Assembly: GCA_049643885.1 (NCBI GenBank)
Contig: JBARQV010000029.1
Coordinates: 24,997-88,996 of the forward strand
Direction: 5' to 3'
Length of the DNA: 64,000 bases
Source: Candidatus Omnitrophota bacterium
GTDB lineage: Bacteria; Omnitrophota; Gorgyraeia; Tantalellales; Tantalellaceae
The notes beneath the pieces were generated by a model. The model was given only the letters and a program-made list of their open reading frames with translations, ran no database searches and was not told the DNA's origin. The position numbers and the translations under genes are program-made. This document shows positions 9,036-49,180 of this stretch, in pieces (position 1 is the first letter of the stretch; each line of letters starts with the position of its first letter).

Positions 9036-9919
9036 TTTTGCGTCTTCCACCTCCGGTGGACCCATACCCATTGTTCAGGATATTCTCTCACGTACTTTTC
9101 CAACAGACCCGTCCAGGCCTGGGTGTATTTCTTCACGTCCTCTTCCGTCCCGCTGCCGGCCGTGACATCTATAGGTTTTTCAACTACAAGCTTATGGGTG
9201 TCGTCTTTCTTTCTCACCACGAACACAGGAACTATCTTTGTCCTGGCCGCCATGGCCAGTTTTACCGGCGCCACCGGCGTGAACGCGGGCTTGCCAAAGA
9301 AATCCACGAATACGCCATCGACGCTTTCAACGTCCTGGTCGGGCACTATGCCGAGGATACTGCCATCCTTCAGGACTTTCAGCATCTTCCTGGGCGACTC
9401 GTCCCGATAGATGACCTTCGCGTCAAACCTGTGGCGCATCCTCGTTATGAATTTGTCGTATTTGTGGAAATATATCCTTCTCCCCACAAGTTTACCCGGA
9501 TAGCCCTTCCTCCTTAGATAAACGCCCAGGAGTTCCCAGTTCCCAAAATGGAATCCCAGGACCAGCGCGCCTTTCCCCTCGGCAAGAACACTATCCAGGT
9601 ATTCCAGCCCTTCATTTTCAGTCACAATATCATCCAGATCTTCAGGTTTCATCGAGTAAAGCTTTATCCACTCAGCACCGTTCTTCGCAAAGTTAGAGAA
9701 AACCTTTCTCGCTATTTTCACATTGGCTTCGTGATCATCGCTGAAAACTTCATCCAGATTAGATATGGCGATCTCACGGTACTTGCGAATGAACGCGAAC
9801 CCGGCTTTCCCGAAAAAATCCGCCATAGCCAGGCTTACTTTTAGCGGAATAAAGCTCATGAAAAAGAACAGGATCTTCAGCAAATAATAAACGTAATATC
9901 TCCTGTATTTTATCTTCAT
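9032..9919 (-). CDS. lpxL: Lipid A biosynthesis late (lauroyl/myristoyl) acyltransferase
   Basis: 295 aa with a C-terminal EQWVWVHRRWK motif typical of the HtrB/LpxL family and an N-terminal membrane anchor. Confidence 0.85.
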   Translation of the reverse strand: MKIKYRRYYVYYLLKILFFFMSFIPLKVSLAMADFFGKAGFAFIRKYREIAISNLDEVFSDDHEANVKIARKVFSNFAKNGAEWIKLYSMKPEDLDDIVTENEGLEYLDSVLAEGKGALVLGFHFGNWELLGVYLRRKGYPGKLVGRRIYFHKYDKFITRMRHRFDAKVIYRDESPRKMLKVLKDGSILGIVPDQDVESVDGVFVDFFGKPAFTPVAPVKLAMAARTKIVPVFVVRKKDDTHKLVVEKPIDVTAGSGTEEDVKKYTQAWTGLLEKYVREYPEQWVWVHRRWKTQK

Positions 9920-10308
9920 CCTCGACGATATTCAGCTTCCACCGATGTGGTTATGCCGCCTCTGACGTTAAAAATACCTTTTACTTTTATCCAGTGCGGC
10001 TTGCAGCTCTTTACCAGGTCATCAAGCATCCTGTTGACGACATGTTCATGAAAAATACCGATACTCCTGAAAGCGACAAGATATTCTTTAAAGGATTTTA
10101 ATTCAACGCATGAAGCGTCCGGCGAATATTCGATGAATATACGCGCGAAATCAGGGAGTCCGGTCTTCGGGCATATGCAGGTGAATTCGGGCGTGTCGAA
10201 TCTTACTACATAATCCTTGTCCTTATATTTATTCTCCCAGGTATCTATTTTAGGAAGCTTGATCTTCCTGATATTTTCCTGCAGTCCTTTGTAACTTTTC
10301 TTTTTCAT
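9916..10308 (-). CDS. queF: NADPH-dependent 7-cyano-7-deazaguanine (preQ0) reductase, type I
   Basis: EFTCICPKTGLPDFA motif. The start is probably MKKKSYKG at 10308, which is preceded by GGAGG (the ORF track extends to 10356). Confidence 0.9.
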   Translation of the reverse strand: MKKKSYKGLQENIRKIKLPKIDTWENKYKDKDYVVRFDTPEFTCICPKTGLPDFARIFIEYSPDASCVELKSFKEYLVAFRSIGIFHEHVVNRMLDDLVKSCKPHWIKVKGIFNVRGGITTSVEAEYRRG

Positions 10309-10322
10309 GCTTCCGCTTTCCT

Positions 10323-10370
10323 CCACACTCTCCCGAGTGTGGTATCCATTCCCCACACGGAGGGGTGGGG
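10323..10370. repeat. Bipartite hairpin element, family 3 copy a: a variable 8-bp stem hairpin followed by GTATCCATTCCCCAC-loop-GTGGGG.
   Basis: The same architecture and conserved GTATCCATTCCCC core appear at 23913-23960. Both copies sit a few nt upstream of a start codon and overlap its SD. Confidence 0.6.
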
Positions 10371-11057
10371 TTATTTGATCCCCAGATCCTTATGAACCTG
10401 TCCAAGAACGATGACATCCCTGGCGGTCTCTTTTTTTATATAATCCCTGAAATATCCCGTCATCTCTTCATCTGGTTCCCTGACTCGGCCATCGACCGGA
10501 GTAACCGGCTGCAAGACCACGGTGACCTTCCCTTTAAGACGCCCGATTATCGATCCCATCCGTTTCACGTCGTCCATGGTAGTGCTGTCGGTAATGACGG
10601 CTTTAGTTATCAGTTCCTTCCGCGACGCTATTTCGGCGAACCTTCGATGCTCGTCCCACAGGGCTCTATTGCCGGTCGAGGACGGGAGTTTAAAATCCAT
10701 GGCTACTACATCCACTTTGTCGACGAGTTGCTCCATCTCGTCCGGTAGCGACCCGTTGGTCTCCAGATAAACGGGTTTGGGCCTGTGGGCCTTATAAAGG
10801 GAAATAAAGCCCTCCAGGAACTCACGGTATAACAACGGTTCCCCGCCGGTGAGGGCCAGTTCACTGTAATCATCACCGAAATCCAGGACCCGGCTGAAAA
10901 GCCCCTCCCGGGTAAGCGACTTATAGCTTTCCAGGATGGTATCGCAAAAAACACAACTTAAGTTGCAGCCGAAAAACCTCACAAAGAGCTGACGGCTCCC
11001 CACATACGGGCCTTCACCCTGGCATGACAAAAAAATCTCAGAAACTTTAGCCTGCAT
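10371..11057 (-). CDS. queE: 7-carboxy-7-deazaguanine synthase (radical SAM)
   Basis: N-terminus FLSCQGEG with a CxxxCxxC-type cluster motif FGCNLSCVFCDT. Confidence 0.9.
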   Translation of the reverse strand: MQAKVSEIFLSCQGEGPYVGSRQLFVRFFGCNLSCVFCDTILESYKSLTREGLFSRVLDFGDDYSELALTGGEPLLYREFLEGFISLYKAHRPKPVYLETNGSLPDEMEQLVDKVDVVAMDFKLPSSTGNRALWDEHRRFAEIASRKELITKAVITDSTTMDDVKRMGSIIGRLKGKVTVVLQPVTPVDGRVREPDEEMTGYFRDYIKKETARDVIVLGQVHKDLGIK

Positions 11058-11742
11058 TTTCGCCGGTCGTCGGTTGTCGGTCGTCGGTCGTTAAAGGATC
11101 GGGGACTCCTGCTTCCTTAAACGCTTTGGACCGGAACTGGCACGATTCACAAGTCCCGCAGGGGGCTTTACCGCCGCGGTAACAGGACCACGTGTACTCA
11201 AAAGGAACGCCCAGGGCCTGCCCTGTCTCGATTATCTCCCTTTTTGTCTTATCCAGTATCGGCGTCATGATCATGATCTCACGGCCTTCACTGCCGGATC
11301 TTGTCCCCTTCCGGACCGTTTCCCGGAAAGTTTCGAAAAAAGACCCGCGGCAATCCGGATAATTCGAAAAATCCAGCTGGTGGGCGCCGATGAACACCGC
11401 CTCTGCCCCGATGGATTCGGCCAGTGACACCCCGTAACTCAGGAAAATCATGTTCCTGGCCGGGACATATGTCGAAGGAATGTCTCCTCCCTGACTAACA
11501 GAGCCTTCGGGCACTTCCAAACTTTCATCTAAAAGAGCACTGCCCTTCCAGGGCAAAGATATCTTCAGGACATGATGATCACAGCCCGTTTTCTCGACTA
11601 TTTTTTTCGCGCATTCGATCTCTTTCGAAGCTTTCTGCCCATAGTCGAATATGAGAGCCCTGCACTCGTAGTCCTGTTTTGCGCTATAAAGCGTAACCGC
11701 GGAATCCATTCCGCCGGATAATAACACTACTGCTTTCTTCAT
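11047..11742 (-). CDS. queC: 7-cyano-7-deazaguanine synthase
   Basis: SGGMDS PP-loop motif and a C-terminal Zn-binding cysteine cluster. Confidence 0.9.
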   Translation of the reverse strand: MKKAVVLLSGGMDSAVTLYSAKQDYECRALIFDYGQKASKEIECAKKIVEKTGCDHHVLKISLPWKGSALLDESLEVPEGSVSQGGDIPSTYVPARNMIFLSYGVSLAESIGAEAVFIGAHQLDFSNYPDCRGSFFETFRETVRKGTRSGSEGREIMIMTPILDKTKREIIETGQALGVPFEYTWSCYRGGKAPCGTCESCQFRSKAFKEAGVPDPLTTDDRQPTTGENAG

Positions 11743-11745
11743 ATT

Positions 11746-12123
11746 CTAGTGTTCAGTGTAAGTCGCGGAAGAGGTATCCGTCTCCCAGACGGTCACCTCT
11801 TCAAGGTCCAGCCCAGGTCTTTTCCCCGACATTTTCTCATAAACATACCGGGCCAGGTTCTCTGACGTCGGGTTGACTTGCTTAAAAGGCTCTACCTCGT
11901 TTAAATATTTATGATCAAACTCAGCCAACGCTTCATTAAGCAGTTGCTTGAGTTCTTTGAAGTCCAGGACCATGCCCTGGCCATCAAGGTCTTCGGCACG
12001 CGCCACGGCTTCGACGCGCCAGTTATGGCCGTGCAGATCCTCGCACTTTCCCTTGTATCCTCTAAGATTGTGGGCGCTGCTGAAGCGTCCCTGGACTTTT
12101 ATCCTGTACATGGTTTTATTCAA
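11746..12123 (-). CDS. queD: 6-carboxy-5,6,7,8-tetrahydropterin synthase
   Basis: 125 aa with a CEDLHGHNW motif. Confidence 0.9.
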   Translation of the reverse strand: MNKTMYRIKVQGRFSSAHNLRGYKGKCEDLHGHNWRVEAVARAEDLDGQGMVLDFKELKQLLNEALAEFDHKYLNEVEPFKQVNPTSENLARYVYEKMSGKRPGLDLEEVTVWETDTSSATYTEH

Positions 12124-14525: not shown

Positions 14526-15291
14526 TCGTGCGCATTATCTCCTTTACCTTCTCCAGATCCTCCGGGGTATCGACACCGATGGTATCATATCTCGTTTCAA
14601 CAGTCCTTATCTTATACCCGTGTTCCAGTACGCGCAGCTGCTCCAAACCTTCTTCTACTTCCAGCGTGGATTTCGGAAAATTGGTGAAGGTCAGAAGAAA
14701 ATCCTTCGTGTACGCGTAAAGGCCTATGTGCTTGAAATAACTCCCGCTGACATTTTCAAGATCGGCGGAAAAAGCTTCGCCCTCAGGTTCTTTCTCGCTG
14801 CGCCTGATAAAAGGTATCGAGCTTCTTGAAAAATATATAGCAAATCCTTTCCTGTCTATGACGACTTTTACTACATTAGGATCGGTGATCTCTTCTTTAT
14901 TGTGGATCCTCTTTATCAAAGTAGCCATCTGGACATTGCGTTCATACTCAAAGACCTGTGCCAGTTCGTCGATCATCATGGGGTGGATCAGAGGTTCATC
15001 TGCCTGGACATTGATGAACACGTCAGCGTCTATCGACCTTGCGACCTCAGCCACTCTATCGGTCCCGGAAGGTTCTTCCTGAGAAGTAAAAACCGCTTTT
15101 CCACCAAAAGCCTCAACGGCCTTGAAAACCTTCTCTTTGTCCACGGCCACGATAACATCATCGACGTCATGAGCCTGCCTGACCCTTTCCCAGACATGCT
15201 GGACCATGGGCTTCCCGTTTATGTCCGCCAGGACCTTGCCTTTAAACCTGGTTGAATCCCATCTTGCCGGTATGACCGCGATGATCTTCAT
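14509..15291 (-). CDS. kdsB: 3-deoxy-manno-octulosonate cytidylyltransferase (CMP-Kdo synthetase)
   Basis: N-terminus MKIIAVIPARWDSTRFKGK. Confidence 0.9.
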   Translation of the reverse strand: MKIIAVIPARWDSTRFKGKVLADINGKPMVQHVWERVRQAHDVDDVIVAVDKEKVFKAVEAFGGKAVFTSQEEPSGTDRVAEVARSIDADVFINVQADEPLIHPMMIDELAQVFEYERNVQMATLIKRIHNKEEITDPNVVKVVIDRKGFAIYFSRSSIPFIRRSEKEPEGEAFSADLENVSGSYFKHIGLYAYTKDFLLTFTNFPKSTLEVEEGLEQLRVLEHGYKIRTVETRYDTIGVDTPEDLEKVKEIMRTSGEGS

Positions 15292-16295
15292 TTTTTCACC
15301 CTTCCCGTCTCTTGCTTTAATTTGCTTAAAAGCTCGCTTTTATTCACTACCGCGGTGCCGACCCTGCCGACAACGATTCCCGCGGCGCAATTCGCGATGT
15401 GAGCGGCAAGAAGAGGCGAACCGCCGCTTACGACCGACAACGCATATGTGGCAATGACGGTATCGCCTGCACCGGAAACATCAAACACTTCCTGGGCTAC
15501 CGTGGGGATCTTGTAGGGTTTTTTCTCTTTTTCAAAAAGCATCATACCTTCTTCTCCCAAGGTGATAAGGACCACATCGGACTTTAGTTTCTTGAGAAGT
15601 TTTTCTCCCGCCTTTTTTATGGCTTGATCGCTGCTAAGCGGAAAACCCACGACTTTCTCGGCTTCGTGGCGGTTAGGCGTGACTACGCTGACCTTCTTGT
15701 AATAGGAAAAATGGTTCTCTTTCGGGTCGACCGCTACAACCTTACCATGCCTCTTGGCCAGAGGTATGATCTTTCCAAGCAATGGCGCGGTAATAAGCCC
15801 TTTCCCGTAGTCTTCGATGATCAACCCGTCGATATCGTGTATCTTCTGCCTGACATGATCTTCGATCTTTCCGGCGATGTTCCAGGAAAGAGCATCGATG
15901 CTTTCCCTGTCGATCCTCACCACCTGCTGGTGATGGCCGATAACCCGGGTCTTGAGGGTGGTGGGCCTTCTCTTGTCAGAAATGACCCCGCCCGTATCGA
16001 TATTCCTTTCCTTGAGCAGGTCCATCAACTTGTCAGCCTTCTCGTCCTCACCTACGATCCCGACGATCGAGACCCGGGCGTCCAGAGCCGCCAGGTTATT
16101 GGCAACGTTACAGGCGCCGCCCGGCATGAAATCTTCTCTTTTTACCCATACCACGGGAACCGGCGCTTCAGGCGAAATGCGGGAAACCTCGCCCCAGATG
16201 AACTGGTCCAAAAGAAGGTCCCCGATCACCATAACCCTTTTCCCGGAAAACCTTTTTACAATATTCGCTAAAGTGGAATAATTAAACCGCTTCAC
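15288..16295 (-). CDS. hldE: D-glycero-beta-D-manno-heptose-7-phosphate kinase (RfaE domain I only, PfkB fold). GTG start.
   Basis: Ribokinase-like GAGD motif with RfaE1-type sequence, and no adenylyltransferase domain. The start is GTG, preceded by GGGAGGGG. Confidence 0.8.
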   Translation of the reverse strand: MKRFNYSTLANIVKRFSGKRVMVIGDLLLDQFIWGEVSRISPEAPVPVVWVKREDFMPGGACNVANNLAALDARVSIVGIVGEDEKADKLMDLLKERNIDTGGVISDKRRPTTLKTRVIGHHQQVVRIDRESIDALSWNIAGKIEDHVRQKIHDIDGLIIEDYGKGLITAPLLGKIIPLAKRHGKVVAVDPKENHFSYYKKVSVVTPNRHEAEKVVGFPLSSDQAIKKAGEKLLKKLKSDVVLITLGEEGMMLFEKEKKPYKIPTVAQEVFDVSGAGDTVIATYALSVVSGGSPLLAAHIANCAAGIVVGRVGTAVVNKSELLSKLKQETGRVKK

Positions 16296-16377
16296 CGGTT
16301 ACACCCCTCCCATATTATGTTTGTTTATGCCATAACATATAGCAAGCGGGTATTTTATCACGCATTCAAACATGATG

Positions 16378-16698
16378 TCAAAGATGTTTTTCCATCTTGG
16401 AAACAAGATCCGCTTTGGGGACCGCTCCCGTTATTTTTTCCACGATTTCGCCGTTCTTGAAGATCGCCAGCGTCGGTATGCTCATGACCTGGTACAGAGA
16501 AGCCGTGAGCCTGGCTTCGTCAACGTTCAGCTTGCAGACCTTGAACTTGCCGTTATATTCTTCGGCTATCTCCCCTATGACAGGGGCGATCATGCGGCAG
16601 GGCATGCACCAATCCGCCCAAAAATCCACCAGAACAGGAACTTCCGCTTCCAGCACTTCCTGTTTGAAATTCGTATCATCGACTATTACTTCCGACAT
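16378..16698 (-). CDS. trxA: Thioredoxin with the variant active site WCMPC
   Basis: 106 aa with a thioredoxin fold. I read the active site [14 protein letters not shown] directly from the codons. Confidence 0.85.
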
Positions 16699-16720
16699 CC
16701 TACTCTCCTTCTGTTCGAGA

Positions 16721-17752
16721 TTATTTTTCCATTATTTTTGATACTGCCTCTACGGCATCCTCGACGGAAACCGCGCTGAGGCATTTGAAACCTTTGTCGC
16801 AATAATGCGCTAGGCATTTTTCACAGCCAACGTCTTTATGCAAAACCACGTCCCTGTCCCCCATCGGCCCCCACCTTTTCGGCGAAAGTCCTGGATCTTT
16901 CCTGCCGAATATGACAACGACCGGGGTATTCACGGCCACACTTACATGCACCGGACCGGAATCATTGGATATGAACACACTGCACCTGGAAAGAAGCTCG
17001 GCAAGTTCCCCTATCCTCAGCATCCCGGTCAGGTCCACAGCTTTGCTTCTCATGTTAGATAAGACCGACTTGCTGAACTCCTCGGTCTGGTCACCCCCGA
17101 CAATGACTATGCGGCAACCGTACTTACCGGCGAGAACATCCGCGACTTCGGCGAATCTTTCCGGCATCCACCTTTTTGAAGGACAACTGGCACCAGGGTG
17201 TATGGCAATAAGCGTCCCGTTTATGCCGGAATCCCTGAAAACCGAATCTACAAGACGCTTATCGCTTTCGGACATGGTCATATACGGCTTGCGGACCGCT
17301 CCCGAAACATCGAACCCGGCTTTTTCTAAAAGGTCAAAATTATAATCTACTTCGTGCCTTGCGCCACCCTGTTTGATGTGTCCGATCCGCCGGGTCAGCA
17401 TCCATCCCAGTTTCCGGTCGTAACCTATCCTTACCGGGATGCCGGCCAGAAGCATCATCACATGGACCCTGTTGGTCGGGTGAAGGGCTATACCGATATC
17501 GAACTTTTTCTTCCGGAGTTGCAGCGCGAATTTTACCGTGCTCCAGAAACTCTTCTGCAGTCCGTATTTATCATACAATATCACTTCGTCAAGATGGGGA
17601 TTATTAGCGACCAGATCCCTGTTTTCAGGCCTTACCATGAATGCTATGTGCGCGCCGGGAAACAACTTACGCATATGGCGTATCACTGGCGTGGAGAGAA
17701 CGACGTCCCCTAACCTGTCAGTCCTTGTGATCAATATCTTTTTCGGCTTCAT
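16721..17752 (-). CDS. ADP-heptose:LPS heptosyltransferase (GT9)
   Basis: GT9 family, as in WaaC/WaaF/WaaQ. The start is probably MMKPKKILI. The ORF track extends 21 nt into the upstream repeat, to 17773. Confidence 0.8.
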
Positions 17753-17776
17753 CATAAACTTAACATCCAGCATCCA

Positions 17777-17866
17777 GTGTGCGGGTCCTGTCGCTCAGTG
17801 CCCTGCGCGCCTCCGCGCCACTGGCTTGTGCGATGCTCGGACACTGTAGCGCCACCCGCCCCCACG
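17777..17866. repeat. GC-rich structured element, family 1 copy 1 (about 90 bp), in the 5' leader of a GT9 gene.
   Basis: About 90% identical to 19578-19665. It has an imperfect long dyad (GCGGGT...CAGTG/CACTG...ACCCGC) around an internal GCGCG-GAG-GCGCGC stem. Confidence 0.7.
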
Positions 17867-17873
17867 AATCCAA

Positions 17874-17902
17874 ATTCTAAACAATACCAAATTTCTATAC
17901 AA
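17874..17902 (-). promoter_or_regulatory. Candidate sigma-70 promoter TTGTAT-N17-TAGAAT, read on the minus strand, that would transcribe repeat copy 1 as the 5' leader of the GT9 gene.
   Basis: Hexamers and spacing read from the sequence. I have no expression evidence. Confidence 0.35.
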
Positions 17903-18069
17903 AGGTCATCAGGGAATCAGATTACCAGGAAGCAGGATTCTGGATATCAGGCAAGAATTCTTCCTAATAAACTGATCATCTGATATCCTGCCCCCTGATA
18001 CACTGTTAACCTGATATCCCATTTTATATCCAATATCCGCTATCTGTCTTCTGCCTTCTGTCTTCTGAA
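17903..18069. promoter_or_regulatory. Repeat-rich noncoding region: three CCTGATATCC/GGATATCAGG motifs, an AAGAATTCTT palindrome, and the direct repeat CAGAAGACAGA x2 when read on the minus strand.
   Basis: Seen in the sequence. A noncoding gap of about 165 bp is large for this compact region. Confidence 0.3.
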
Positions 18070-18582
18070 CTACTCACTCCTTGTCAACTCCTCGTATACT
18101 TTCAGGTACACGTGATAATCGCTTTCACTGAAACATATATACCTGATCTCGTTAAAATCTTTCTGGAACCTCAACCCTTCTTCAAGAGCTATCCACGTAG
18201 CTTTCTCTACCGGGTACCCGTACACGCCCGTGCTTATCGCCGGAAAAGCAATGGTCCTGAGGCCGTGCTTTATCGCGAGTTTAAAACTGTTTGAATAACA
18301 GTTCGCCAGACTCTCCGCCTCGCCATGTTCCCCTCCCTGCCAAACCGGACCGGGAGTATGGATCACTTTTTTAGCTTTAAGGTTTCCCGCGTTTGTGATC
18401 ACAGCATGGCCGGTGATGCAGCCCCCTATATCCATACACTCTTTGAGCAGGGGAGGACCGGCCGCCCGGTGGACCGCACCGTCGACTCCGCCTCCTCCGC
18501 GAAGACTGGTATTGGCGGCGTTAACTATCACATCAACGTCTTCTTTCGTAATATCGCCCCGCGTGATAATTATTTTGCCCAT
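18070..18582 (-). CDS. Macro domain protein (MacroD/YmdB-like ADP-ribose or O-acetyl-ADP-ribose hydrolase)
   Basis: 170 aa with NAANTSLRGGGGVDGAVHRAAG and a G(I/V)YGYP motif. Confidence 0.85.
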   Translation of the reverse strand: MGKIIITRGDITKEDVDVIVNAANTSLRGGGGVDGAVHRAAGPPLLKECMDIGGCITGHAVITNAGNLKAKKVIHTPGPVWQGGEHGEAESLANCYSNSFKLAIKHGLRTIAFPAISTGVYGYPVEKATWIALEEGLRFQKDFNEIRYICFSESDYHVYLKVYEELTRSE

Positions 18583-18583
18583 C

Positions 18584-19558
18584 TTATCCCCCCAACAGCT
18601 CTTTCGCTGCTTTAAAAACTTCCTCGACAGTAATCCGACTTATGCATCCCTCGTCGGGGCCAATAGAACATAATGCCTTCCCGCAAGGACGGCATGATAG
18701 CAATGGTTTGATGACCTTGCTTTTCTCAGATAAAGGTCCGTACCTTTCTTCGTCAGAAGGTCCGAAAATAGCTACCGTTGCAACGTTGGCCATGCTGGCC
18801 ATATGCAGCGGGGCGCTGTCGTTAGTTATAACCAGGTCGCAGCGCCTCATGATCTCAAAAAGACTGCCCAGGGTCGTCCTGCAACAAAGATCCTGCACCT
18901 TACTTTTAACGGAACTTACCACCTTCCGGACAGTTTCCCTGTCATCCTCATTTCCGCAAACCAGAACATCGCAATCAAGTTCACTCACAAGCCTGTCCGC
19001 AAGAGCGGCGAACTTACCGGAATCCCATCTTTTAAGGTGGCTCTTGGCGCCGGGATTCAAAGTCACAGTTTTCTTTTTGCGTCCGGAAGATAAAACCTGG
19101 TCAGCGAAACGCCTGTCTTCGTCCAAAACGGGGAGAAAAAACCTTATCCTGGAAAAAGGCTCGATCCCGAGCCCCGCGAGTTTCGCAAGATGTTCCTTGC
19201 TTTTATGGCGTCTTCTATTTGAAAGATCGAAAATACCCGTCCTGAAACGGGCGCCGGAAAGATACGGGATAAGTGAATTTTTCAGATCGACCACCATATC
19301 GTATTTCTTACGCCGTATTTCAAGGATATTCTTCAATCTATCTGCTAATGATGAACGTTTTTTGTGCACTTTGACCTCGCGGACCTTGGGATGCGCTGCA
19401 AATATATCCCGTCCCGGGGAACCTGTGATAATGTCAACGCTTGCCCCGGGAAACTCATCACAAAGTTTCTCCAAAACCGGAGTAGTGAGCAGGATATCGC
19501 CGAGATTGCTCAGTGTAATGAATAGAATCGATTTCACGTTGTTTTTATCGGGTTTCAT
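18584..19558 (-). CDS. ADP-heptose:LPS heptosyltransferase family glycosyltransferase (GT9)
   Basis: GT9 fold. The start is probably MKPDKNNVKSILFI. The ORF-track N-terminus (to 19675) is read-through of repeat copy 2. Confidence 0.8.
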   Translation of the reverse strand: MKPDKNNVKSILFITLSNLGDILLTTPVLEKLCDEFPGASVDIITGSPGRDIFAAHPKVREVKVHKKRSSLADRLKNILEIRRKKYDMVVDLKNSLIPYLSGARFRTGIFDLSNRRRHKSKEHLAKLAGLGIEPFSRIRFFLPVLDEDRRFADQVLSSGRKKKTVTLNPGAKSHLKRWDSGKFAALADRLVSELDCDVLVCGNEDDRETVRKVVSSVKSKVQDLCCRTTLGSLFEIMRRCDLVITNDSAPLHMASMANVATVAIFGPSDEERYGPLSEKSKVIKPLLSCRPCGKALCSIGPDEGCISRITVEEVFKAAKELLGG

Positions 19559-19682: not shown

Positions 19683-20699
19683 CTACTTTAGTACTTTTCT
19701 CACCGCGTCCAGCACTTTCTCCACCGTTATCTTTCTCATGCAAATATAATCTTTATCGCAATTCTCCACATAACAGGGCACTTCACAATCAACATCCTCG
19801 GCAATGACAATGTTACTTCCTCTTCCCCTGGGACCGGTGATATTGTAAGAGGTCGGCCCAAAAAGTCCGATGGTAGAAACACCTACAGCCGAAGCTAGAT
19901 GAAGCGGGCCGGAATCAGCGCTGATAACAAGGTCACTCTTCTTAAAAAGAACGGCCAGCTCGTTAAGTCTTGTTCTGCCGGCAGTCGTATAACATTTGTC
20001 ATTCCCGACCTTCTCTACGATATTATTACAAAGTTCGACATCTTTGGCGGCCCCCGATATCATGACTTCGACGTCTTCAAAAGAAGCCAGGATCTTTTTT
20101 GCCAGGGCAACAAAATTATCCGCGGGCCATCTCTTAGGCTCCCAGTTGGCGCCCGGGTTGATCGTCACTGTCCGGTACTGGCCTCCTCCAAGCTCATGAA
20201 GCAAGGCGTCCGCCCGCTCCCTGTCCTCGACGCTGGTGAAATATTCGTATGTACCGTCCGCCCGCGTCACGTCCGCTGGACCGGCCAGTGCCAGGATCTG
20301 GTCCACGCGGTGCAGGTTCCCTGAAGGCATTTCAACTTCTTCGGTCAACGGAGCCTTTTTCCCTGCGAACCCTATACGTTCAGGGATCCCGGCCAAAAGA
20401 GCCATTACCGTTTTTGTCGCCGAGGGTTTAAGAAAAAAACACGTATCGTAATCTTCTTTCCGGATCATGCTGATAAACGCAAGCTTCTCTCCCAATGAAG
20501 TGACGCGGTTATCATCCGAAAGCGCATGGACGCAATTTACCCAGGGGTTATTAGCCAGCAGCTCAACATACCGGGGCACTACAACGCAGGATATATAGGC
20601 ATCCGGGAATGCTTTCCTGATAGCCCGTATGAACGGAAATGAAAACAGGATATCACCCATCCAGTTAAGCTCAAAAATAAGTATCCTCTTACCGATCAT
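19683..20699 (-). CDS. ADP-heptose:LPS heptosyltransferase family glycosyltransferase (GT9)
   Basis: 338 aa of GT9 type, including a CEVPCYVENC-like C-terminal motif. Confidence 0.8.
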   Translation of the reverse strand: MIGKRILIFELNWMGDILFSFPFIRAIRKAFPDAYISCVVVPRYVELLANNPWVNCVHALSDDNRVTSLGEKLAFISMIRKEDYDTCFFLKPSATKTVMALLAGIPERIGFAGKKAPLTEEVEMPSGNLHRVDQILALAGPADVTRADGTYEYFTSVEDRERADALLHELGGGQYRTVTINPGANWEPKRWPADNFVALAKKILASFEDVEVMISGAAKDVELCNNIVEKVGNDKCYTTAGRTRLNELAVLFKKSDLVISADSGPLHLASAVGVSTIGLFGPTSYNITGPRGRGSNIVIAEDVDCEVPCYVENCDKDYICMRKITVEKVLDAVRKVLK

Positions 20700-20715: not shown

Positions 20716-21819
20716 CTATTTTGTAACTACTTTCTCATACACATTGATCGTCTTCCTCACGCTGTCTTCTATCGAAAATTCGCTCAACGCCTTTTTGCGC
20801 GCTTCCTGCCCGATCCGTTTCCGGAGCTGGTCGTCTTCCGCCAGTCTCATTATACCCCGGCTTAAAGCCTCCGGGTCCTTCGGCGGAACCAATATCCCGT
20901 CCTCTTCCGGAGTGATCAGTTCAACCGGTCCGCCGATACTACTGGCAACGCAAGCCCGGCCGGCAGCCATGGCTTCCATCAGCGATAGTCCCAGCCCCTC
21001 GGATACGGAAGGCAAGCAAAAAATATCCATAAGTAATAAAAATTTTCCCAGCGGCGCTTCTTTTCCACTGGCAAAAAATACATTATCGGAGACGCCTTCG
21101 CGCAAGACTTGCTCTTCCAGAGACGCTTTTTCAGGCCCCTCCCCCACGAGAAGAAGCTGCATCCGTGAATCCCTGTCCATCGCCTTTTTAAAAGCACTGA
21201 CAAGATAATTCAACCCCTTCACAGGGGAAAGCCGTCCGACCGCTCCCACCAGAAGAACTTCCTTTGACAACCCGATGTTCCTTAAAAGCCTGTCGTCTTT
21301 TTCGCCGATATCTGAATAACGGCCTGTTTCTACGCCGTTATATACCAGTTGGACCCTGTCGCCGGGAAGACGAAAATCCCCGATAAGATGCTTGCGCACG
21401 CTATCACTTATGGCTATCACTTTCCGTCCCCAGCACGGGAAAAGCTTTCTTCCCAGCCTGTGGTGTTTGAAAAAACCGTGGCATGTTGAGATAAAAGGAA
21501 CGCCGGTTTTACGCTCCACGAGGCAGCCAAGAACCTGCGCGACCCTGGTCTGCGCGTGGACAATATCGAACCCCTCCGCTTTCACCATTCGGGATAAAAG
21601 ATGAGAAGCCTTCCAGACCTTCAAGCCGAATTCAGACTTGGTCTTTATGTCTAGGGTCAGGTGGGGAATGATGTTATCCACTAATACCTTTTTCATGTCC
21701 CCGCCGCCGGATGCGACGGTTACATCCACTCCAGCCTTTTTCAGATACCTGGCCAGGCTCACGGTGTAAACGGCTATGCCGCCGGTATTCAAATGCGTGG
21801 TCAGAAGCAATACCTTCAT
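20716..21819 (-). CDS. Glycosyltransferase family 4 (RfaG/WaaG-like)
   Basis: 367 aa, GT4 GT-B fold, with an EGLGLSLMEAMAAG motif. Confidence 0.8.
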   Translation of the reverse strand: MKVLLLTTHLNTGGIAVYTVSLARYLKKAGVDVTVASGGGDMKKVLVDNIIPHLTLDIKTKSEFGLKVWKASHLLSRMVKAEGFDIVHAQTRVAQVLGCLVERKTGVPFISTCHGFFKHHRLGRKLFPCWGRKVIAISDSVRKHLIGDFRLPGDRVQLVYNGVETGRYSDIGEKDDRLLRNIGLSKEVLLVGAVGRLSPVKGLNYLVSAFKKAMDRDSRMQLLLVGEGPEKASLEEQVLREGVSDNVFFASGKEAPLGKFLLLMDIFCLPSVSEGLGLSLMEAMAAGRACVASSIGGPVELITPEEDGILVPPKDPEALSRGIMRLAEDDQLRKRIGQEARKKALSEFSIEDSVRKTINVYEKVVTK

Positions 21820-23909
21820 CTCATCACTTCCATTACCGCGTTAAAAACTTCCTGCGGCTCAACTGAACTTATACACTTCACTCCCTTGCGGCACACCGGC
21901 TTGTAACAGGGCGAGCACTTTATCTTTTTATATATGACCCTGCATTTTTTCGCCGGCGGGAGGTGCTTGTCAGGATCAGTCGGACCGAAAATGGCCACGA
22001 ACGGCGTCCCGGTCGCTATCGCGACATGCATGGGAGAACTGTCACCTGTCACCAGCGCGTTGCACCGTTTAACAAGACTCACCAGCCGCGCAATATTCGT
22101 CTTGCCCACGGCGTTGATGGGTTTGGCCGTGGTCATCTTCATGAATTCCTGCGCTTTCCTCTCATCGTCTTTTGTCCCGAGAAGGACGACCCGCGTCCCT
22201 TCCTTCTCGGCAAGAAGTTCTGTCAGCTCTACCATCTTTTCCGGTTCCCAGTTCTTCGTCTTCCACCTTCGACTGGCGGAAAGACTGAGGGCTACCAGCT
22301 TCTGGTCTTTTTTTAGCCAGTTATCTCTCAAGAAACTTTCCGCCCAGACCCCGCTTTTGCTGTCTTCCCATAACTCGAGATCATGTTCCAGGTTCATTAT
22401 GCCCAAAAGCCCCAAAACGCGGGCCTGATGTTTTATCGGTTCCACCGACTTATCAGGCAGGCTGATCTTATGATTCAAAAGAAAACTCAGCTTACGGTTA
22501 TCATACCCATATCTTCCGGGGATGCCGCTCAAAAAAGCCAGCAAATGGCTTTTCCGGTTATTCTGCAGATCTATGGAGATATCGAATTCTTCCGAGCACA
22601 ACCTTCTGGCCAGGGCCAGGAACCCGGGGCCCCGGTCCCGTCCCCTGAAATCACAGGTCAGAACATCGTCTATGTACGGACAATGATCGAGGACCTCCCT
22701 GAACCTGACATCTACCAGGACTTTTATCTCGGCTTTCTTGAATTTGTTCCTCATGGCTTTGAGCGAAGGAATACTCAGGATCACGTCTCCGAGGGCGCTT
22801 ATCTTGAACACAAGTATTCTCTTTGTCTCCAGGACCTGTCTATACGTCTCCAGGGTCATGTCCATTACTTTGGATAATGAAAAATTTTCCTCGACGCGTT
22901 TCCTGGCATTCTGGGCTATTTTCTGCATCAGCCCGGGATCATCCAGGTAACCCATGATCTTTTCCGCCATATCACTCGGGTTGCCTGGTTCGCATAAAAG
23001 GCCGGTAACGCCGTCATCAATGTTCTCCGCCGCGCCGCCGACCCGGGTAGCGACAACCGGGACTCCTCTGGCCATGGCTTCTATTATCGACCGGCCGAAT
23101 GCTTCCTGCTCCTTGTTCGCTGAAACAAGGATGTCGACTTCCTTAAGGACCTCTGCCACGTCTTTGCCGCTTTCAATGAACTTTACGTTCCCTTCAAGCG
23201 TAAAACGCCGTATGGCAAAGTCGATCTTCTTCATGTAATCACTGCCGGCAGAATACCGGTCCCCCATAAGTATTATTTCGACGTTGTTCTTCTTCCTTAA
23301 AACACGGGAAGCAGCCTTCAGGAAGTCAAGGTGCCCTTTCAGCGGGACAAAACGTGATATCATGGCTACCCGGAAAACCTTGTCTTTTCTGCTTGAGGGA
23401 GAGATGAAAGAATACTTTTCCAGGTCCACTCCTCTCGGAATGATCTTCATCTTCCCCGGCTGGACACCAAAATTATCTTTCATGTGCCGGGCCATCATTT
23501 CGCCGGCCACGATGACTACCCTGCCCCATCCCATCACCCGGCTGATAAGATGCTTCTTGTAATGCCCGTGCGCAGTGGTCACGAACTTCCTCCGCGTGGA
23601 ACGAGCGGCAAAATACCCGGTAAGGGCGGGAATCCTGCTCCTAGCATGGACTATATCGATATTCTCCCGCCTGATTATTCCGCGTAATTTAAAATAGCAA
23701 TAGACCATGGTGAAAGGATTCTTGCGGCCTACCGGCAGAATATACTGCCGCGCGCCGATGGCGGCAAGATCCCGTTCCAATCTTCCTCCCCCGGAAACGA
23801 CCACGGCCTTATGGCCGTTTAATGCGAGGTGCCTGGCGACTTCGACAGTGCTCTTCTCAACACCGCCGATATCCAGTTTTGGAACTAATTGTAATACGTT
23901 CATAGCCAT
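21816..23909 (-). CDS. Bifunctional glycosyltransferase: N-terminal GT4 domain fused to a C-terminal GT9 heptosyltransferase-like domain.
   Basis: 697 aa. Residues 1 to about 350 are GT4-like (EAFGRSIIEAMARGVPVV). Residues from about 355 to 697 are GT9-like (ILVFKISALGDVILSIP ... CSPCYKPVC). Confidence 0.75.
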   Translation of the reverse strand: MAMNVLQLVPKLDIGGVEKSTVEVARHLALNGHKAVVVSGGGRLERDLAAIGARQYILPVGRKNPFTMVYCYFKLRGIIRRENIDIVHARSRIPALTGYFAARSTRRKFVTTAHGHYKKHLISRVMGWGRVVIVAGEMMARHMKDNFGVQPGKMKIIPRGVDLEKYSFISPSSRKDKVFRVAMISRFVPLKGHLDFLKAASRVLRKKNNVEIILMGDRYSAGSDYMKKIDFAIRRFTLEGNVKFIESGKDVAEVLKEVDILVSANKEQEAFGRSIIEAMARGVPVVATRVGGAAENIDDGVTGLLCEPGNPSDMAEKIMGYLDDPGLMQKIAQNARKRVEENFSLSKVMDMTLETYRQVLETKRILVFKISALGDVILSIPSLKAMRNKFKKAEIKVLVDVRFREVLDHCPYIDDVLTCDFRGRDRGPGFLALARRLCSEEFDISIDLQNNRKSHLLAFLSGIPGRYGYDNRKLSFLLNHKISLPDKSVEPIKHQARVLGLLGIMNLEHDLELWEDSKSGVWAESFLRDNWLKKDQKLVALSLSASRRWKTKNWEPEKMVELTELLAEKEGTRVVLLGTKDDERKAQEFMKMTTAKPINAVGKTNIARLVSLVKRCNALVTGDSSPMHVAIATGTPFVAIFGPTDPDKHLPPAKKCRVIYKKIKCSPCYKPVCRKGVKCISSVEPQEVFNAVMEVMR

Positions 23910-23960: not shown

Positions 23961-25901
23961 TCAAAATAGTTTGTACATTTTTTCCAGAATACGTTTGTCG
24001 TCTTCCGGCAAAACGTGTTCGATCTTGCCATTAATATAATTTTCCGCCGCTTCGGGTATACGCTCGGGATCGACGACTTTAAGATACTTCTTCTTCTCAA
24101 GACCCCTGACAAACCTTTCGTACTTTGTCAGGCGGCTCTTTTTCTTGTCCGGCATGAACACCAGAACCGGCTTACCGGAAGAGACGGCTTCCGAGACCAT
24201 TGAAATACTCTCACCCGAAACAACTACCACGTCGCTGAAAGCAAGTATCTTTTCCACGGTGTGCTTGTCCGGGTCATCCTTACCGGAAACAAACTTTAGA
24301 CAACGGGGGTAACCTCCGAAAGTTTCCTTGATAACAGCCTCGGCCGCGTCAGGTGTTCTCCTGGAGGTCGTCACGTAAAAAAACCCGTCCACCCGTTCGC
24401 CTGCTCCTTTGATGCCAGAGACCACCGAGCGCATAAGCCCTTCCCCGAAACTGAAATACTGATTGTCTCCTCCGAGCAGCACCCCTATGCGCGCTCCCTC
24501 CTTCGCTTCTTGCTCTTGCCCGGACCGGGTGCCCCATGAAGCGATCTCATCGGGCTCAATGGAATTCGGAGCAAGGTCCGTCATAATGACATTCTCTCCC
24601 TTGATCTTCCTGGCAAGACAATCGTGCCTGGGGATCACTACAAGGTCGAATTTCCTGCGGCTCCAGGCCCCGGGATCCAGGACAGCAAGGTTACGGGCGT
24701 TGTTTTCTATCTTCAAGAACAGATTCACTCCGGACAAGGTCGAACCGCAGCTGATAACGACATCCGCGTAACGGCCCACCGCCTCCTCGTAGCTTTTTCT
24801 TTCCAGAAACCAGGAAAGACGTCTTGCCTCGCCCTGGCAATCAAAGGTAAAAAGCGGATTCAAAAGATTGAACACGGCCTTGGCGAACTTGTTCTTGAAT
24901 CTGATCTCGACGATATCCACCTGGGTCTGGTCGGGTGAAAAACCTTCGTTTTCGCGATAACGCTTAAGCTGCTTTACCACCGCGAGAGACTGTTTCAGGT
25001 GCCCTTTCTTTCCGTCATCGAGGACCAGTATCTTTTTCACTGGGGTAAGCTTCCACTTCTTATGCATCCAGAACCATTGCTCCGGATGTTCTCTGACGTG
25101 CTTTTCAAGAAGACGGTGGTATTCTTCCATATAAGGCACAATGTCTTCTTTTTTGCCTATTATCATCGGTTTTTCCAGGATTATCTTTTGATATGGGCCT
25201 TTGATCCTGTGAATAAAAGCCGGTACGACCCAGGCCCCGCTTGACTGGGCGAAACGGAAAGGACCCACGGCAGTTGACGCGGGACGGTCGAAAAGTTCCA
25301 AAAGTTTACCGTTTTGGCCTGCATTCTGGTCTCCCAATAACCCCACGCCGCCTCCATTTCGCAGGATACGGAAAACATTTTTTATATCCATACCTTTCCG
25401 AATAACAAAATTGCCTTTTGACTCGCGCAATAAGTTAAAAAGCTCATTAAGGCGTTTCATCTTCTGATCCCTTGCCACAAGATGAAGTGGATACCCGTTC
25501 ATCACGCTTTCCACGCACATCAGCTCCCAGTTACCAAAATGCGCAGAAATTAGCAGCATCCCGTTCGGGTTTTTTGCCGCCTGATCAATATACTCCCTGT
25601 TTTGAGTTTCGATGTATTTGTCAAGATAAGCTTTATCCACTTTCGTCATTGAAATCAATTCAATCAAAGTCTGGCCCGCGTTCCTGTAAACTTCCTTTGT
25701 AAGGCGTTTTATTTCCAGCGGGCTTTTCCCCCGCCAAAAAGCAGCCTTGAGATTGGCATAAGTTATTCTTTTCCTTTTGCCGTTCAGGTAATACGCAAGA
25801 TTTCCGAGGTTGCGTCCAACCCAAAGGTTAAACCTCATCGGCATCAGATGAAAAATTTTATTAGCCCCTATCGCCAGATATGACGCTATTAAGTCTATCA
25901 A
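23961..25901 (-). CDS. Lipid A late acyltransferase (LpxL/HtrB family, N-terminal about 300 aa) fused to an uncharacterised C-terminal domain of about 340 aa, possibly a GT-B-like ELM1/DUF1022-like domain.
   Basis: The N-terminal half has the LpxL hallmarks HFGNWE and EQWFWMHKKWK. The C-terminal half begins ILVLDDGKKGHLKQSLAVV, has Rossmann-like segments (VVVVSGESISMVSEAVSSGKPVLVF) and no P-loop. The ELM1-like assignment is from memory, so its confidence is moderate. Confidence 0.65.
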   Translation of the reverse strand: MIDLIASYLAIGANKIFHLMPMRFNLWVGRNLGNLAYYLNGKRKRITYANLKAAFWRGKSPLEIKRLTKEVYRNAGQTLIELISMTKVDKAYLDKYIETQNREYIDQAAKNPNGMLLISAHFGNWELMCVESVMNGYPLHLVARDQKMKRLNELFNLLRESKGNFVIRKGMDIKNVFRILRNGGGVGLLGDQNAGQNGKLLELFDRPASTAVGPFRFAQSSGAWVVPAFIHRIKGPYQKIILEKPMIIGKKEDIVPYMEEYHRLLEKHVREHPEQWFWMHKKWKLTPVKKILVLDDGKKGHLKQSLAVVKQLKRYRENEGFSPDQTQVDIVEIRFKNKFAKAVFNLLNPLFTFDCQGEARRLSWFLERKSYEEAVGRYADVVISCGSTLSGVNLFLKIENNARNLAVLDPGAWSRRKFDLVVIPRHDCLARKIKGENVIMTDLAPNSIEPDEIASWGTRSGQEQEAKEGARIGVLLGGDNQYFSFGEGLMRSVVSGIKGAGERVDGFFYVTTSRRTPDAAEAVIKETFGGYPRCLKFVSGKDDPDKHTVEKILAFSDVVVVSGESISMVSEAVSSGKPVLVFMPDKKKSRLTKYERFVRGLEKKKYLKVVDPERIPEAAENYINGKIEHVLPEDDKRILEKMYKLF

Positions 25902-28184: not shown

Positions 28185-28192
28185 GTTTTATT

Positions 28193-28231
28193 TGATCCCG
28201 GATCCCGCTTTTGGCGGGTCCGGGATGACAT
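28193..28231. repeat. Palindromic hairpin element, family 2 copy D: TGATCCCGGATCCCGC-TTTTG-GCGGGTCCGGGATGACAT.
   Basis: The conserved termini GATCCCGG / CCGGGATGACAT recur at five or more sites. The inner stem varies with compensatory changes. Confidence 0.7.
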
Positions 28232-28264
28232 ATTTTTATTTTTCGACGAATTATGTGATCCTTC

Positions 28265-35685: not shown

Positions 35686-35695
35686 AACCAGACAT

Positions 35696-35840
35696 ATGTC
35701 ATCCCGGACGAGCCCGGAAATAATATGTCATCCCGGAATCGCGCCAAAGGCGCGATATCCGGGACCAAGTAAAATTATTATTTGATCCCCGCTTTCGCGG
35801 GGATGACATACTTCTAAATCGGCGAATTCCGGGATGACAT
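35696..35840. repeat. Composite palindromic element, family 2 copy A (about 145 bp), with four GTCATCCCGG/CCGGGATGACAT termini and nested hairpins.
   Basis: It shares ATCCGGGACCAAGTAAAATTATTAT(T/G)TGATCCC with copy B at 45279-45375, and fills the pilD-aroE intergenic gap up to the aroE stop. Confidence 0.7.
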
Positions 35841-41546: not shown

Positions 41547-41616
41547 TATGCAGTCTCCTACCCTATATTATTCTAGGTTATAATAGATAAAACTTCTATT
41601 CCTCATATGTCTAAAT

Positions 41617-41645
41617 AGTATATCCATATAGCAAAATTTTGTCAA
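41617..41645 (-). promoter_or_regulatory. Sigma-70 promoter TTGACA-N17-TATACT for the ilvBNC-leuA operon, read on the minus strand.
   Basis: Consensus -35, 17-nt spacer and a near-consensus -10, leaving about 70 nt of leader to the ilvB ATG. Confidence 0.5.
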
Positions 41646-41658
41646 GTGAAGTGAGACC

Positions 41659-41691
41659 CAGACTTAGCGAACGCCAGTGAAGCTAAGTCTG
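41659..41691. terminator. Perfect 10-bp-stem hairpin CAGACTTAGC-N13-GCTAAGTCTG downstream of alr. It could be an alr terminator or an insulator placed ahead of the ilv promoter.
   Basis: The inverted repeat is seen directly. The 3' flank on the minus strand is only weakly U-rich. Confidence 0.3.
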
Positions 41692-41700
41692 CCGGCCGAA

Positions 41701-41740
41701 CTTCATCCCGGGCGAGGCCGTTAGGCCGAGTCCCGGGATC
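41701..41740. repeat. Family 2 hairpin element, copy E, in inverted orientation: CTTCATCCCGGGCGAGGCCGTTAGGCCGAGTCCCGGGATC.
   Basis: Its reverse complement matches copy B's GATCCCGGATCTCGGCCTACGGCCTCGCCCGGGATGACAT. Confidence 0.6.
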
Positions 41741-41783
41741 TCTCCTATACATAAAGACAACTTATGAGGACGGGATTCTTCCA

Positions 41784-42923: not shown

Positions 42924-42924
42924 T

Positions 42925-43067
42925 GTGCGGGTCCTGTCGCGAGGTGTCCTGCGCGCATCCGCATTTCATTTGTGCTGTACCCGGGTGCAAGCTATACAGT
43001 GCAGTATATTCCCTACCAGGGCCCCTCCGCCCGGTGTGGATCCTCCCTGTACGGGAACATACTGCAC
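42925..43067. repeat. Family 1 copy 3 in the alr leader: the first 39 bp or so match copies 1 and 2 (GTGCGGGTCCTGTCGC.AGGTGTCCTGCGCGC.TCCGC), followed by a unique highly structured segment.
   Basis: Shared core as stated. The unique part has inverted repeats GTGCAGTATATTCCC / GGGAACATACTGCAC and CTGTA...TACAG. Confidence 0.55.
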
Positions 43068-43120
43068 TATACTCTTTACTCCTTTATGTATGCACTCGAT
43101 CATCGAATACCCAACATCCA

Positions 43121-48884: not shown

Positions 48885-49180
48885 CTTATGCCTTCTTTTT
48901 CCAGCAGTTGTCTTTTTTTCTTTATCCCTTCCGAGTAACCCCCGATCGTACCATCGGCTAATATGACCCTGTGGCACGGCACGTGAGGAGCATAAGGATT
49001 CTTTCCCAGCGCCTGCCCCACAGCCCGGCAAGCCCCCGACGACCCCGCCTTTTCAGCTACCCAGGAATAGGAACGCACCTTGCCTTCGGGAATATCCAGG
49101 ACCGTTTTGAGAACTTTCTTCTGAAATAGCGTAAGGCCGGGATCCTTATCGATCTTTACGCGGAAAAAACTTTTCTTCAT
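48875..49180 (-). CDS. ogt: Methylated-DNA-protein-cysteine methyltransferase family protein (DNA-binding domain, PCHRV active site)
   Basis: About 100 aa from MKKSFF, with motifs PCHRV and YSWVAEKAG. Confidence 0.75.
   Translation of the reverse strand: MKKSFFRVKIDKDPGLTLFQKKVLKTVLDIPEGKVRSYSWVAEKAGSSGACRAVGQALGKNPYAPHVPCHRVILADGTIGGYSEGIKKKRQLLEKEGIRCV

Follow-up and report, generated by a model that had tools for sequence, protein, structure and literature searches.

A canonical YmdB/MacroD-type macro domain gene stands between heptosyltransferase genes in one Omnitrophota subclade, probably after a single insertion

We analysed a macro domain gene in a 64,000-nucleotide (nt) stretch of DNA from a Candidatus Omnitrophota bacterium (assembly GCA_049643885.1, contig JBARQV010000029.1, positions 24,997 to 88,996), referred to here as the window. 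The gene lies between two genes of glycosyltransferase family 9 (GT9), GT9b upstream and GT9a downstream, within a large cluster for lipopolysaccharide (LPS) synthesis. A reading made from the DNA letters alone (the sequence-only reading) had proposed that a macro protein in this position could be dedicated to ADP-heptose or another ADP-sugar. Our data favour a more ordinary explanation. It is likely that a canonical YmdB/MacroD hydrolase gene was inserted once and has since been carried in an LPS supercluster of frozen gene order, so that its location is a fixed historical accident. The macro protein is of a known type, in a lineage-specific gene context. Coordinates are collected in Table 1.

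The sequence-only reading correctly recognised a MacroD/YmdB-like gene. The encoded protein matches 117 of the 118 positions of the Pfam Macro model (PF01661, E=2.7e-43) and passes, by a narrow margin, the NCBIfam equivalog NF001664, 'O-acetyl-ADP-ribose deacetylase' (203.3 bits, cutoff 200), while scoring under the cutoff of each of the sibling equivalogs NF001663, NF001660 and NF001661. The best match among solved structures is E. coli YmdB (1SPV, 5CB3; E=2e-48), with 51% identity over 167 amino acids (aa) and a full-length match, followed by MacroD2 (E=5e-46), MacroD1 and Oceanobacillus MacroD. With a solved structure at 51% identity, structure prediction was unnecessary. An identical protein has already been deposited as 'O-acetyl-ADP-ribose deacetylase' in Candidatus Omnitrophota metagenome-assembled genomes (e.g. 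GCA_049644805.1 and GCA_049642145.1). Judged by these matches, the window gene reads as a canonical YmdB/MacroD-type macro gene whose family and annotation are already known.

The residues that matter in YmdB are all present. A review lists N22, N25, G32, D35, H39 and Y126 as the key residues of YmdB, within an N-GGVD-GVYG motif (PMC8120803). In the window protein all six are conserved, as N21, N24, G31, D34, H38 and Y121, and the motifs read N21-A-A-N24, G29-G-G-G-V-D34-G-A-V-H38 and S117-T-G-V-Y121-G-Y-P. These conserved residues suggest that the protein would hydrolyse O-acetyl-ADP-ribose or mono-ADP-ribosylated substrates. Following the structure and mutagenesis of YmdB (PMC8120803), the two loops G29-G32/V33-D34 and S117-T-G-V-Y121-G would hold the ADP-ribose moiety between them. 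A water molecule positioned by Asn24 and Asp34 (N25/D35 in YmdB) would remove the 2''-O-acetyl group from sirtuin-made O-acetyl-ADP-ribose, or mono-ADP-ribose from proteins or nucleic-acid ends.

We compared the ligand pocket in an alignment of 12 GT9-linked macro proteins, four close relatives without a GT9 neighbour, 71 distant homologs and YmdB. The motif columns (GDIT, NAAN, GGGGVDGAIH, T63, H75, G78-P79 and S-T-G-x-Y-G-Y-P) are near-invariant among the 87 aligned relatives (94–100%), the sole lapse being a Y121 to F change in one unlinked protein (from locus L002; loci are identified by L numbers throughout). Six positions are specific to the linked clade (T25, P77, E135, G136, Y148 and Y163). 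None falls within the motifs. With the exception of E135, each is also found in two or more of the four close relatives that lack a GT9 neighbour, mainly L005, L006 and L009. Comparison of linked with unlinked macro proteins revealed no pocket substitution peculiar to the GT9-linked clade. As far as the alignment indicates, the ligand pocket bears no sign of remodelling for another ADP-linked sugar.

A scan of the genome collection with the macro protein returned 80 loci, which were inspected with flanks of up to 10 kb on each side. Orthology and neighbours were assigned by tblastn. GT9-flanked macro genes were seen only in five Omnitrophota loci (L001, L003, L004, L007 and L008; macro 68–79% identical). 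Four other close loci have no GT9 neighbour, namely L002 (66%), L005 (62%), L006 (67%, on a short contig) and L009 (67%, binned as Auribacterota). Among the distant macro genes (at most 57% identity), no GT9 gene was seen at any of the 71 loci within 10 kb on either side. Six further homologs from public assemblies (L161–L166, 64–71% identity) all show the order GT9b-macro-GT9a (6/6). The complete set with this order comprises L001, L003, L004, L007, L008, L081, L082, L084, L092 and L161–L166; these form one clade and, allowing for redundant pairs (L001/L092, L003/L163, L082/L162 and L084/L161), represent 11 non-redundant loci. The embedding of the macro gene in an ADP-heptose-type GT9 cluster, as described in the sequence-only reading, is therefore real and is kept across a whole Omnitrophota subclade.

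At L002 (6664–9891), genes for acetyl-CoA synthetase, Sir2 and the macro protein (66% identical to that of the window) follow one another, and the macro gene overlaps the end of the Sir2 gene. Acetyl-CoA synthetase, Sir2 and macro together form the classic producer-consumer context for sirtuin/O-acetyl-ADP-ribose deacetylase function. In a neighbour-joining tree of macro proteins, built without bootstrap support, L002 and L005 are the sister group of the GT9-linked macros, and L006 and L009 fall among the linked ones.

A reverse scan of metagenomes with GT9a also yielded 80 loci. Wherever GT9a is at least 58% identical, a macro gene stands between GT9b and GT9a, with the single exception of L085 (GT9a 62%, GT9b 52%), where the two GT9 matches are about 165 nt apart and the macro gene is absent. 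At eight loci of a sister clade (GT9a 48–51%), GT9b directly abuts GT9a with no macro gene, and the order LpxL-ELM1, GT4-GT9, GT4 (glycosyltransferase family 4), GT9c, GT9b, GT9a is kept. In the GT9a tree, likewise neighbour-joining without bootstrap, all loci with the macro gene form one monophyletic group, with L085 as sister to it and the eight-locus macro-less clade outside both. Since the macro-bearing loci are monophyletic and their outgroups are macro-less, the simplest history is a single macro insertion into the GT9b/GT9a junction.

GT9b and GT9a also occur joined to each other. We searched with a concatenated GT9b, macro and GT9a query and scored the 8000 candidates that shared most words with it. 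Among Omnitrophota proteins, about 47 clusters (P0121–P0167; 657–702 aa) look like GT9b-GT9a fusions with no macro between, and in all ten that were aligned (10/10) the N-terminal half is GT9b-like (31–42%), the C-terminal half is GT9a-like (39–52%) and the macro domain is absent. GT9b and GT9a therefore constitute a functional pair that works without the macro protein. No protein fusing a macro domain with GT9 was present among the matches listed. The partners found in multidomain macro proteins of 40–61% identity are mostly ARH (PF03747), PARG-like (PF10021), NADAR (PF08719) and PGI (PF00342) domains. With the exception of PGI, which is glucose-6-phosphate isomerase, these recurrent partners are ADP-ribose-processing domains, and none is a GT9 or heptose-pathway domain. 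Separately, one protein (P0172, 571 aa) combines an N-terminal GT9 domain with HAD-family phosphatase domains (PF13419, PF00702 and PF08645) and may join a heptosyltransferase to a heptose-pathway phosphatase.

The sequence-only reading looked for support to macro and GT9 genes co-occurring in related genomes, and held that relatives whose macro gene lies elsewhere and not at this locus would speak against it. Co-occurrence across lineages amounts to one Omnitrophota event and one possible second (2/5 loci, below). Absence here and presence elsewhere is largely what we observed: the gene is missing from the locus in L085 and the sister clade, and L002, L005, L006 and L009 carry it in other surroundings, yet it is retained throughout one subclade.

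The surrounding gene order is itself highly conserved. In the direction of transcription, the macro gene is preceded by WaaA, LpxK, an LpxL-ELM1-like fusion, a GT4-GT9 fusion, GT4, GT9c and GT9b, and is followed by GT9a, thioredoxin, HldA, KdsB, KdsA, KdsD, KdsC, QueD, QueC, QueE, QueF, LpxL, LptC/A and LptB. A block of about 20 kb running from XerC to LptC, thioredoxin and queCDEF included, is collinear across the clade loci. In every syntenic relative a thioredoxin gene separates GT9a from HldA, and it occupies the same place in L161–L166. The que genes hold the same position in L001, L003, L007, L008 and L081–L084, though they have no known LPS role. Thioredoxin and queCDEF thus serve as internal controls, being functionally unrelated genes that are equally embedded in the LPS block.

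About 63 genes are called in the window, nearly all on the minus strand, with junctions that are very short or overlapping. Because of this, co-orientation and tight spacing are uninformative in this genome. The co-orientation of macro and GT9 genes that the sequence-only reading had cited is true but carries no information. The 1-nt distance to a GT9 gene is also correct; the neighbour concerned is the upstream GT9b, whereas GT9a is 296 nt downstream.

At the GT9b-macro junction (minus strand, ...GAG CTG TTG GGG GGA TAA G ATG...), the GT9b stop codon TAA (18586–18584) and the macro ATG (18582–18580) are separated by that single nucleotide. A G6A purine run within the 3' end of GT9b (last codons GGG GGA), 5–11 nt before the macro ATG, resembles a Shine-Dalgarno sequence. 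GT9b is most likely the 324-aa gene rather than a 363-aa open reading frame (ORF) beginning with TTG, and its start at 19558 matches the gene calls in identical contigs. The 1-nt spacing and the Shine-Dalgarno-like run are typical of translational coupling, and we infer that GT9b and the macro gene are probably co-transcribed and coupled in this way. Around the macro gene, neither promoter-like sites (6, versus 4.3 ± 2.1 in shuffled sequence) nor terminator-like sites (7, versus 3.8 ± 2.0) were significantly enriched, both scans lying about 1–1.5 standard deviations above the mean.

The history that we favour would begin with one insertion into the ancestral GT9b/GT9a junction, in the ancestor of one Omnitrophota subclade. 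The macro gene would afterwards have been carried along inside a large, single-strand, gene-order-frozen LPS supercluster. Embedding may give it steady, housekeeping-level expression, as for thioredoxin and queCDEF in the same block, and the protein would have no role in LPS synthesis.

Several observations weigh against this account. All 11 non-redundant loci sampled from the subclade have kept the macro gene. Across these loci the spacing between GT9b and macro is tight, from -8 to +70 nt and mostly at most 21 nt, while macro and GT9a overlap by 4 nt in 4 loci and lie furthest apart, at +296 nt, in the window. Median identity to the window proteins is 69% for macro, compared to 56.5% for GT9b, 64.7% for GT9a, 63.7% for GT9c and 56.8% for GT4 (72–74% for KdsA and KdsB). 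As the macro protein is better conserved than the flanking glycosyltransferases, it behaves as a selected operon gene under purifying selection and not as decaying cargo. No sirtuin was found in the 64-kb window, the only part of the genome inspected, either by tblastn with the L002 Sir2 or by domain scans of the called ORFs. The trees from which a single origin was read carry no bootstrap support. Even so, the persistence of the macro gene stands out no more than does that of the cluster genes without an LPS role.

Two cases from outside the Omnitrophota belong on the same side. In E. coli clones, ymdB beside clsC raises ClsC levels through an unexplained mechanism (PMC8027125), so that there is a precedent for a YmdB-type protein assisting an envelope enzyme encoded next to it. 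A possible second macro-GT9 association was seen at L158 (3–4090; Ignavibacteria/Bacteroidota-like), where a macro gene lies 82 nt upstream of GT9-WaaA. Four homologs of the L158 macro were examined as well, and in one of them (L172) GT9 and WaaA again follow the macro gene, giving 2/5 loci. The L158 macro is 35% identical to the window protein and is without the catalytic Asp and Tyr (GSGVAGAI, TGVGGF); its motifs suggest a distinct, Af1521-like subtype. A GAF-HisKA histidine kinase gene is found upstream of the L158-type macro in 3/5 loci (the five include L158, L171, L172 and L173), and the downstream genes vary. This adjacency hints at a second independent association, at most one further event and an unstable one. 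It leaves a weak general link between macro and GT9 genes conceivable without establishing it. Another candidate, L130, where 1.2 kb lies between a macro gene and a GT9 pair, was rejected as chance, the genes being convergent on opposite strands with another gene between.

These observations would suit an accessory factor, that is, a macro protein that supports the adjacent GT9 enzymes through their stability or levels, or by removing inhibitory ADP-ribosylation of an LPS-core enzyme, and does not act on ADP-heptose. Tight operonic embedding throughout the subclade (4-nt overlaps with GT9a included), conservation above the glycosyltransferase neighbours, the ymdB-clsC precedent and the second lineage all speak for such a factor. 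We nevertheless consider it unlikely. The GT9b/GT9a pair exists without a macro in the nearest outgroup, in the sister clade and in the fused forms, the Omnitrophota linkage appears to have a single origin, and the unrelated thioredoxin and queCDEF genes show equally conserved embedding. In the Ignavibacteria-like lineage the histidine kinase is a commoner neighbour than GT9 (3/5 versus 2/5). Furthermore, domain scans of the called ORFs detected no ADP-ribosyltransferase in the 64-kb window.

The sequence-only reading proposed that the macro protein could bind or hydrolyse an ADP-sugar such as ADP-heptose. Taken further, such a protein would set the donor pool of the GT9 enzymes, for example by taking the 7-phosphate off ADP-heptose-7-phosphate, in analogy to the ADP-ribose-1''-phosphatase activity of macro domains. 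The location of the gene, between GT9 genes of ADP-heptose-dependent type and near HldA, speaks for it. The GT9 assignment holds for GT9a, GT9b and GT9c by PF01075 (E=4e-30 to 7e-40), with ADP-heptose as their putative donor, and use of ADP-heptose in the cluster is plausible because the HldA gene lies beside the GT9 genes. The proposal is also favoured in that no gmhB-like phosphatase was found among the scanned ORFs of the 64-kb window, where the small HAD proteins are limited to KdsC. Those ORFs likewise yielded no gmhA, hldC or hldD. No paper linking macrodomains with ADP-heptose was found in the searched literature, so the idea is not disproved by earlier work.

Other evidence argues against an ADP-heptose function, which we regard as very unlikely. 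The residues of the distal-ribose pocket are the same as in YmdB and in the unlinked macros. The sugar of ADP-heptose is a pyranose linked through its anomeric C1 to the beta-phosphate, whereas that of ADP-ribose is a furanose linked via C5; therefore, a YmdB-identical pocket is not expected to handle ADP-heptose. To our knowledge, the known ADP-sugar hydrolases are Nudix enzymes. GT9 co-occurrence is not seen outside one clade, no fusion to a GT9 or heptose-pathway domain appears among the matches listed, and sister lineages with the same GT9 set have no macro gene there. Data from viral macro domains fall on both sides. By isothermal titration calorimetry on a SARS-CoV-2 macro domain, ADP-glucose binds at micromolar affinity, similar to ADP, without the enthalpy signature of ADP-ribose (bioRxiv 10.1101/2020.03.31.014639). 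With the MacroD-like Mac1 of SARS-CoV-2, ADP-glucose gave no detectable inhibition, an outcome that the authors put down to steric or polarity effects at the distal-ribose site (PMC13408504). Neither the pocket residues nor the phylogenetic distribution, the fusion partners or the chemistry thus supports a macro protein dedicated to ADP-heptose or another ADP-sugar.

Recruitment of the macro protein into the heptosyltransferase module, either as a YmdB-ClsC-like helper of GT9b and GT9a or for ADP-heptose binding or ADP-heptose-7-phosphate dephosphorylation, is quite improbable, and the evidence gathered nowhere favours it. If true, it would be the first link of macrodomains to nucleotide-sugar or LPS metabolism. 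It would extend macrodomain biology to ADP-sugar and envelope biosynthesis and would point to a protein that may regulate ADP-heptose, which acts as an innate-immune agonist.

The spacer between macro and GT9a folds into a very stable hairpin directly downstream of the macro gene. Since E. coli YmdB binds and inhibits RNase III (PMC4329070), one could suppose that the window protein likewise modulates RNase III and so tunes the processing of hairpins in the polycistronic LPS transcript. The same spacer also holds hairpins in L004, L007, L008, L081 and L084, although of unrelated sequence. However, stable folding is common in the window: of the ten spacers that are 60 nt or longer, seven have z<=-2.8 (range -2.9 to -10.4); examples are 17774–18069, 28185–28264, 35686–35839, 41547–41783 and 42924–43120. 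In some relatives the spacer is replaced by the 4-nt macro/GT9a overlap and the hairpin is thus absent. Control of RNase III by YmdB has been demonstrated in E. coli alone, and nothing connects RNase III activity to the location of the gene. We consider this explanation very unlikely. A macro-specific RNA element in the spacer was also rejected, as similar hairpins occur throughout the window, an Rfam search of the spacer gave no match, and the hairpins of relatives are unrelated or absent. The spacer hairpins of the window may be REP-like (repetitive extragenic palindromic) or transcript-stabilising elements.

Table 1. Positions of the macro gene, its neighbours and other features in the window.
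Feature	Position	Strand	Properties
Macro gene	18070..18582	-	170 aa, ATG start; single-domain MacroD/YmdB-type protein
GT9b (upstream GT9)	18584..19558	-	324 aa; PF01075 E=4.2e-30; TIGR02195 124.1 bits, below cutoff 134.6
GT9a (downstream GT9)	16721..17773	-	350 aa, heptosyltransferase II type; PF01075 E=6.8e-40; TIGR02195 137.5 bits, cutoff 134.6
GT9c (third GT9)	19683..20699	-	PF01075 E=2e-31; TIGR02195 137.5 bits, cutoff 134.6
Macro-GT9a spacer	17774..18069	-	296 nt; long imperfect hairpin, minimum free energy -107.4 kcal/mol, z=-4.96
HldA	15288..16295	-	D-glycero-beta-D-manno-heptose-7-phosphate kinase; TIGR02198 391.2 bits, cutoff 345
Thioredoxin	16378..16698	-	106 aa, between GT9a and HldA; PF00085 E=1e-31
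queF, queE, queC, queD	9916-12123	-	queuosine genes, between lpxL and kdsC
GT4-GT9 fusion	21816..23909	-	697 aa; 61-67% identity in clade
LpxL-ELM1-like fusion	23961-25901	-	646 aa; PF03279 (lipid A late acyltransferase) + PF06258 (ELM1-like, 'mitochondrial fission ELM1'); ~59% identity in relatives
TatD-type DNase/radical SAM protein	47511-49031	-	506 aa; PF01026 + PF04055, unusual pairing

One other reading frame near the macro gene was considered as a conserved gene and rejected. This frame ('orf135', 16372–16779, plus strand, 135 aa, no family match), although the longest in its gap, is an antisense shadow of thioredoxin.

If the single-insertion account is true, it carries a caution, in that tight operon embedding in compact, single-strand, order-frozen genomes need not mean shared function.

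Among known systems, E. coli YmdB is the closest to the window protein. Both are single-domain proteins of similar length (170 aa in the window, 177 aa in YmdB), are 51% identical over 167 aa, and share the N-x6-GGVD and GVYG motifs with all six key residues. They differ in that ymdB adjoins clsC, a cardiolipin synthase gene, whereas the window macro lies between two GT9 genes and its activity is predicted. Human MacroD1 and MacroD2 and the MacroD of Oceanobacillus iheyensis belong to the same MacroD subfamily (4IQY, 2X47 and 5FUD; E=1e-41 to 5e-46) and have the catalytic motifs, but the eukaryotic proteins bear N-terminal extensions or targeting sequences and the window protein is a bare domain. 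Sirtuin-macro pairs (CobB/Sir2 with YmdB-type proteins, and SirTM-macro operons) are mirrored in the sister-group L002 macro, directly behind Sir2 and acetyl-CoA synthetase. The window differs from them, having glycosyltransferases as neighbours and no sirtuin within its 64 kb. The ymdB-clsC pair shares with the window a YmdB-type macro gene beside a gene for an envelope-lipid enzyme, and co-cloning raises ClsC (PMC8027125); the partner there is a phospholipase D-type cardiolipin synthase rather than a GT9, and the Omnitrophota pair is known from its genes. Finally, the Ignavibacteria-like, Af1521-like macro (L158 and L172) also stands immediately upstream of GT9 and the 3-deoxy-D-manno-octulosonic acid (Kdo) transferase WaaA in 2/5 loci, but at 35% identity, without the catalytic Asp/Tyr, and with the GAF histidine kinase as its commoner neighbour (3/5).

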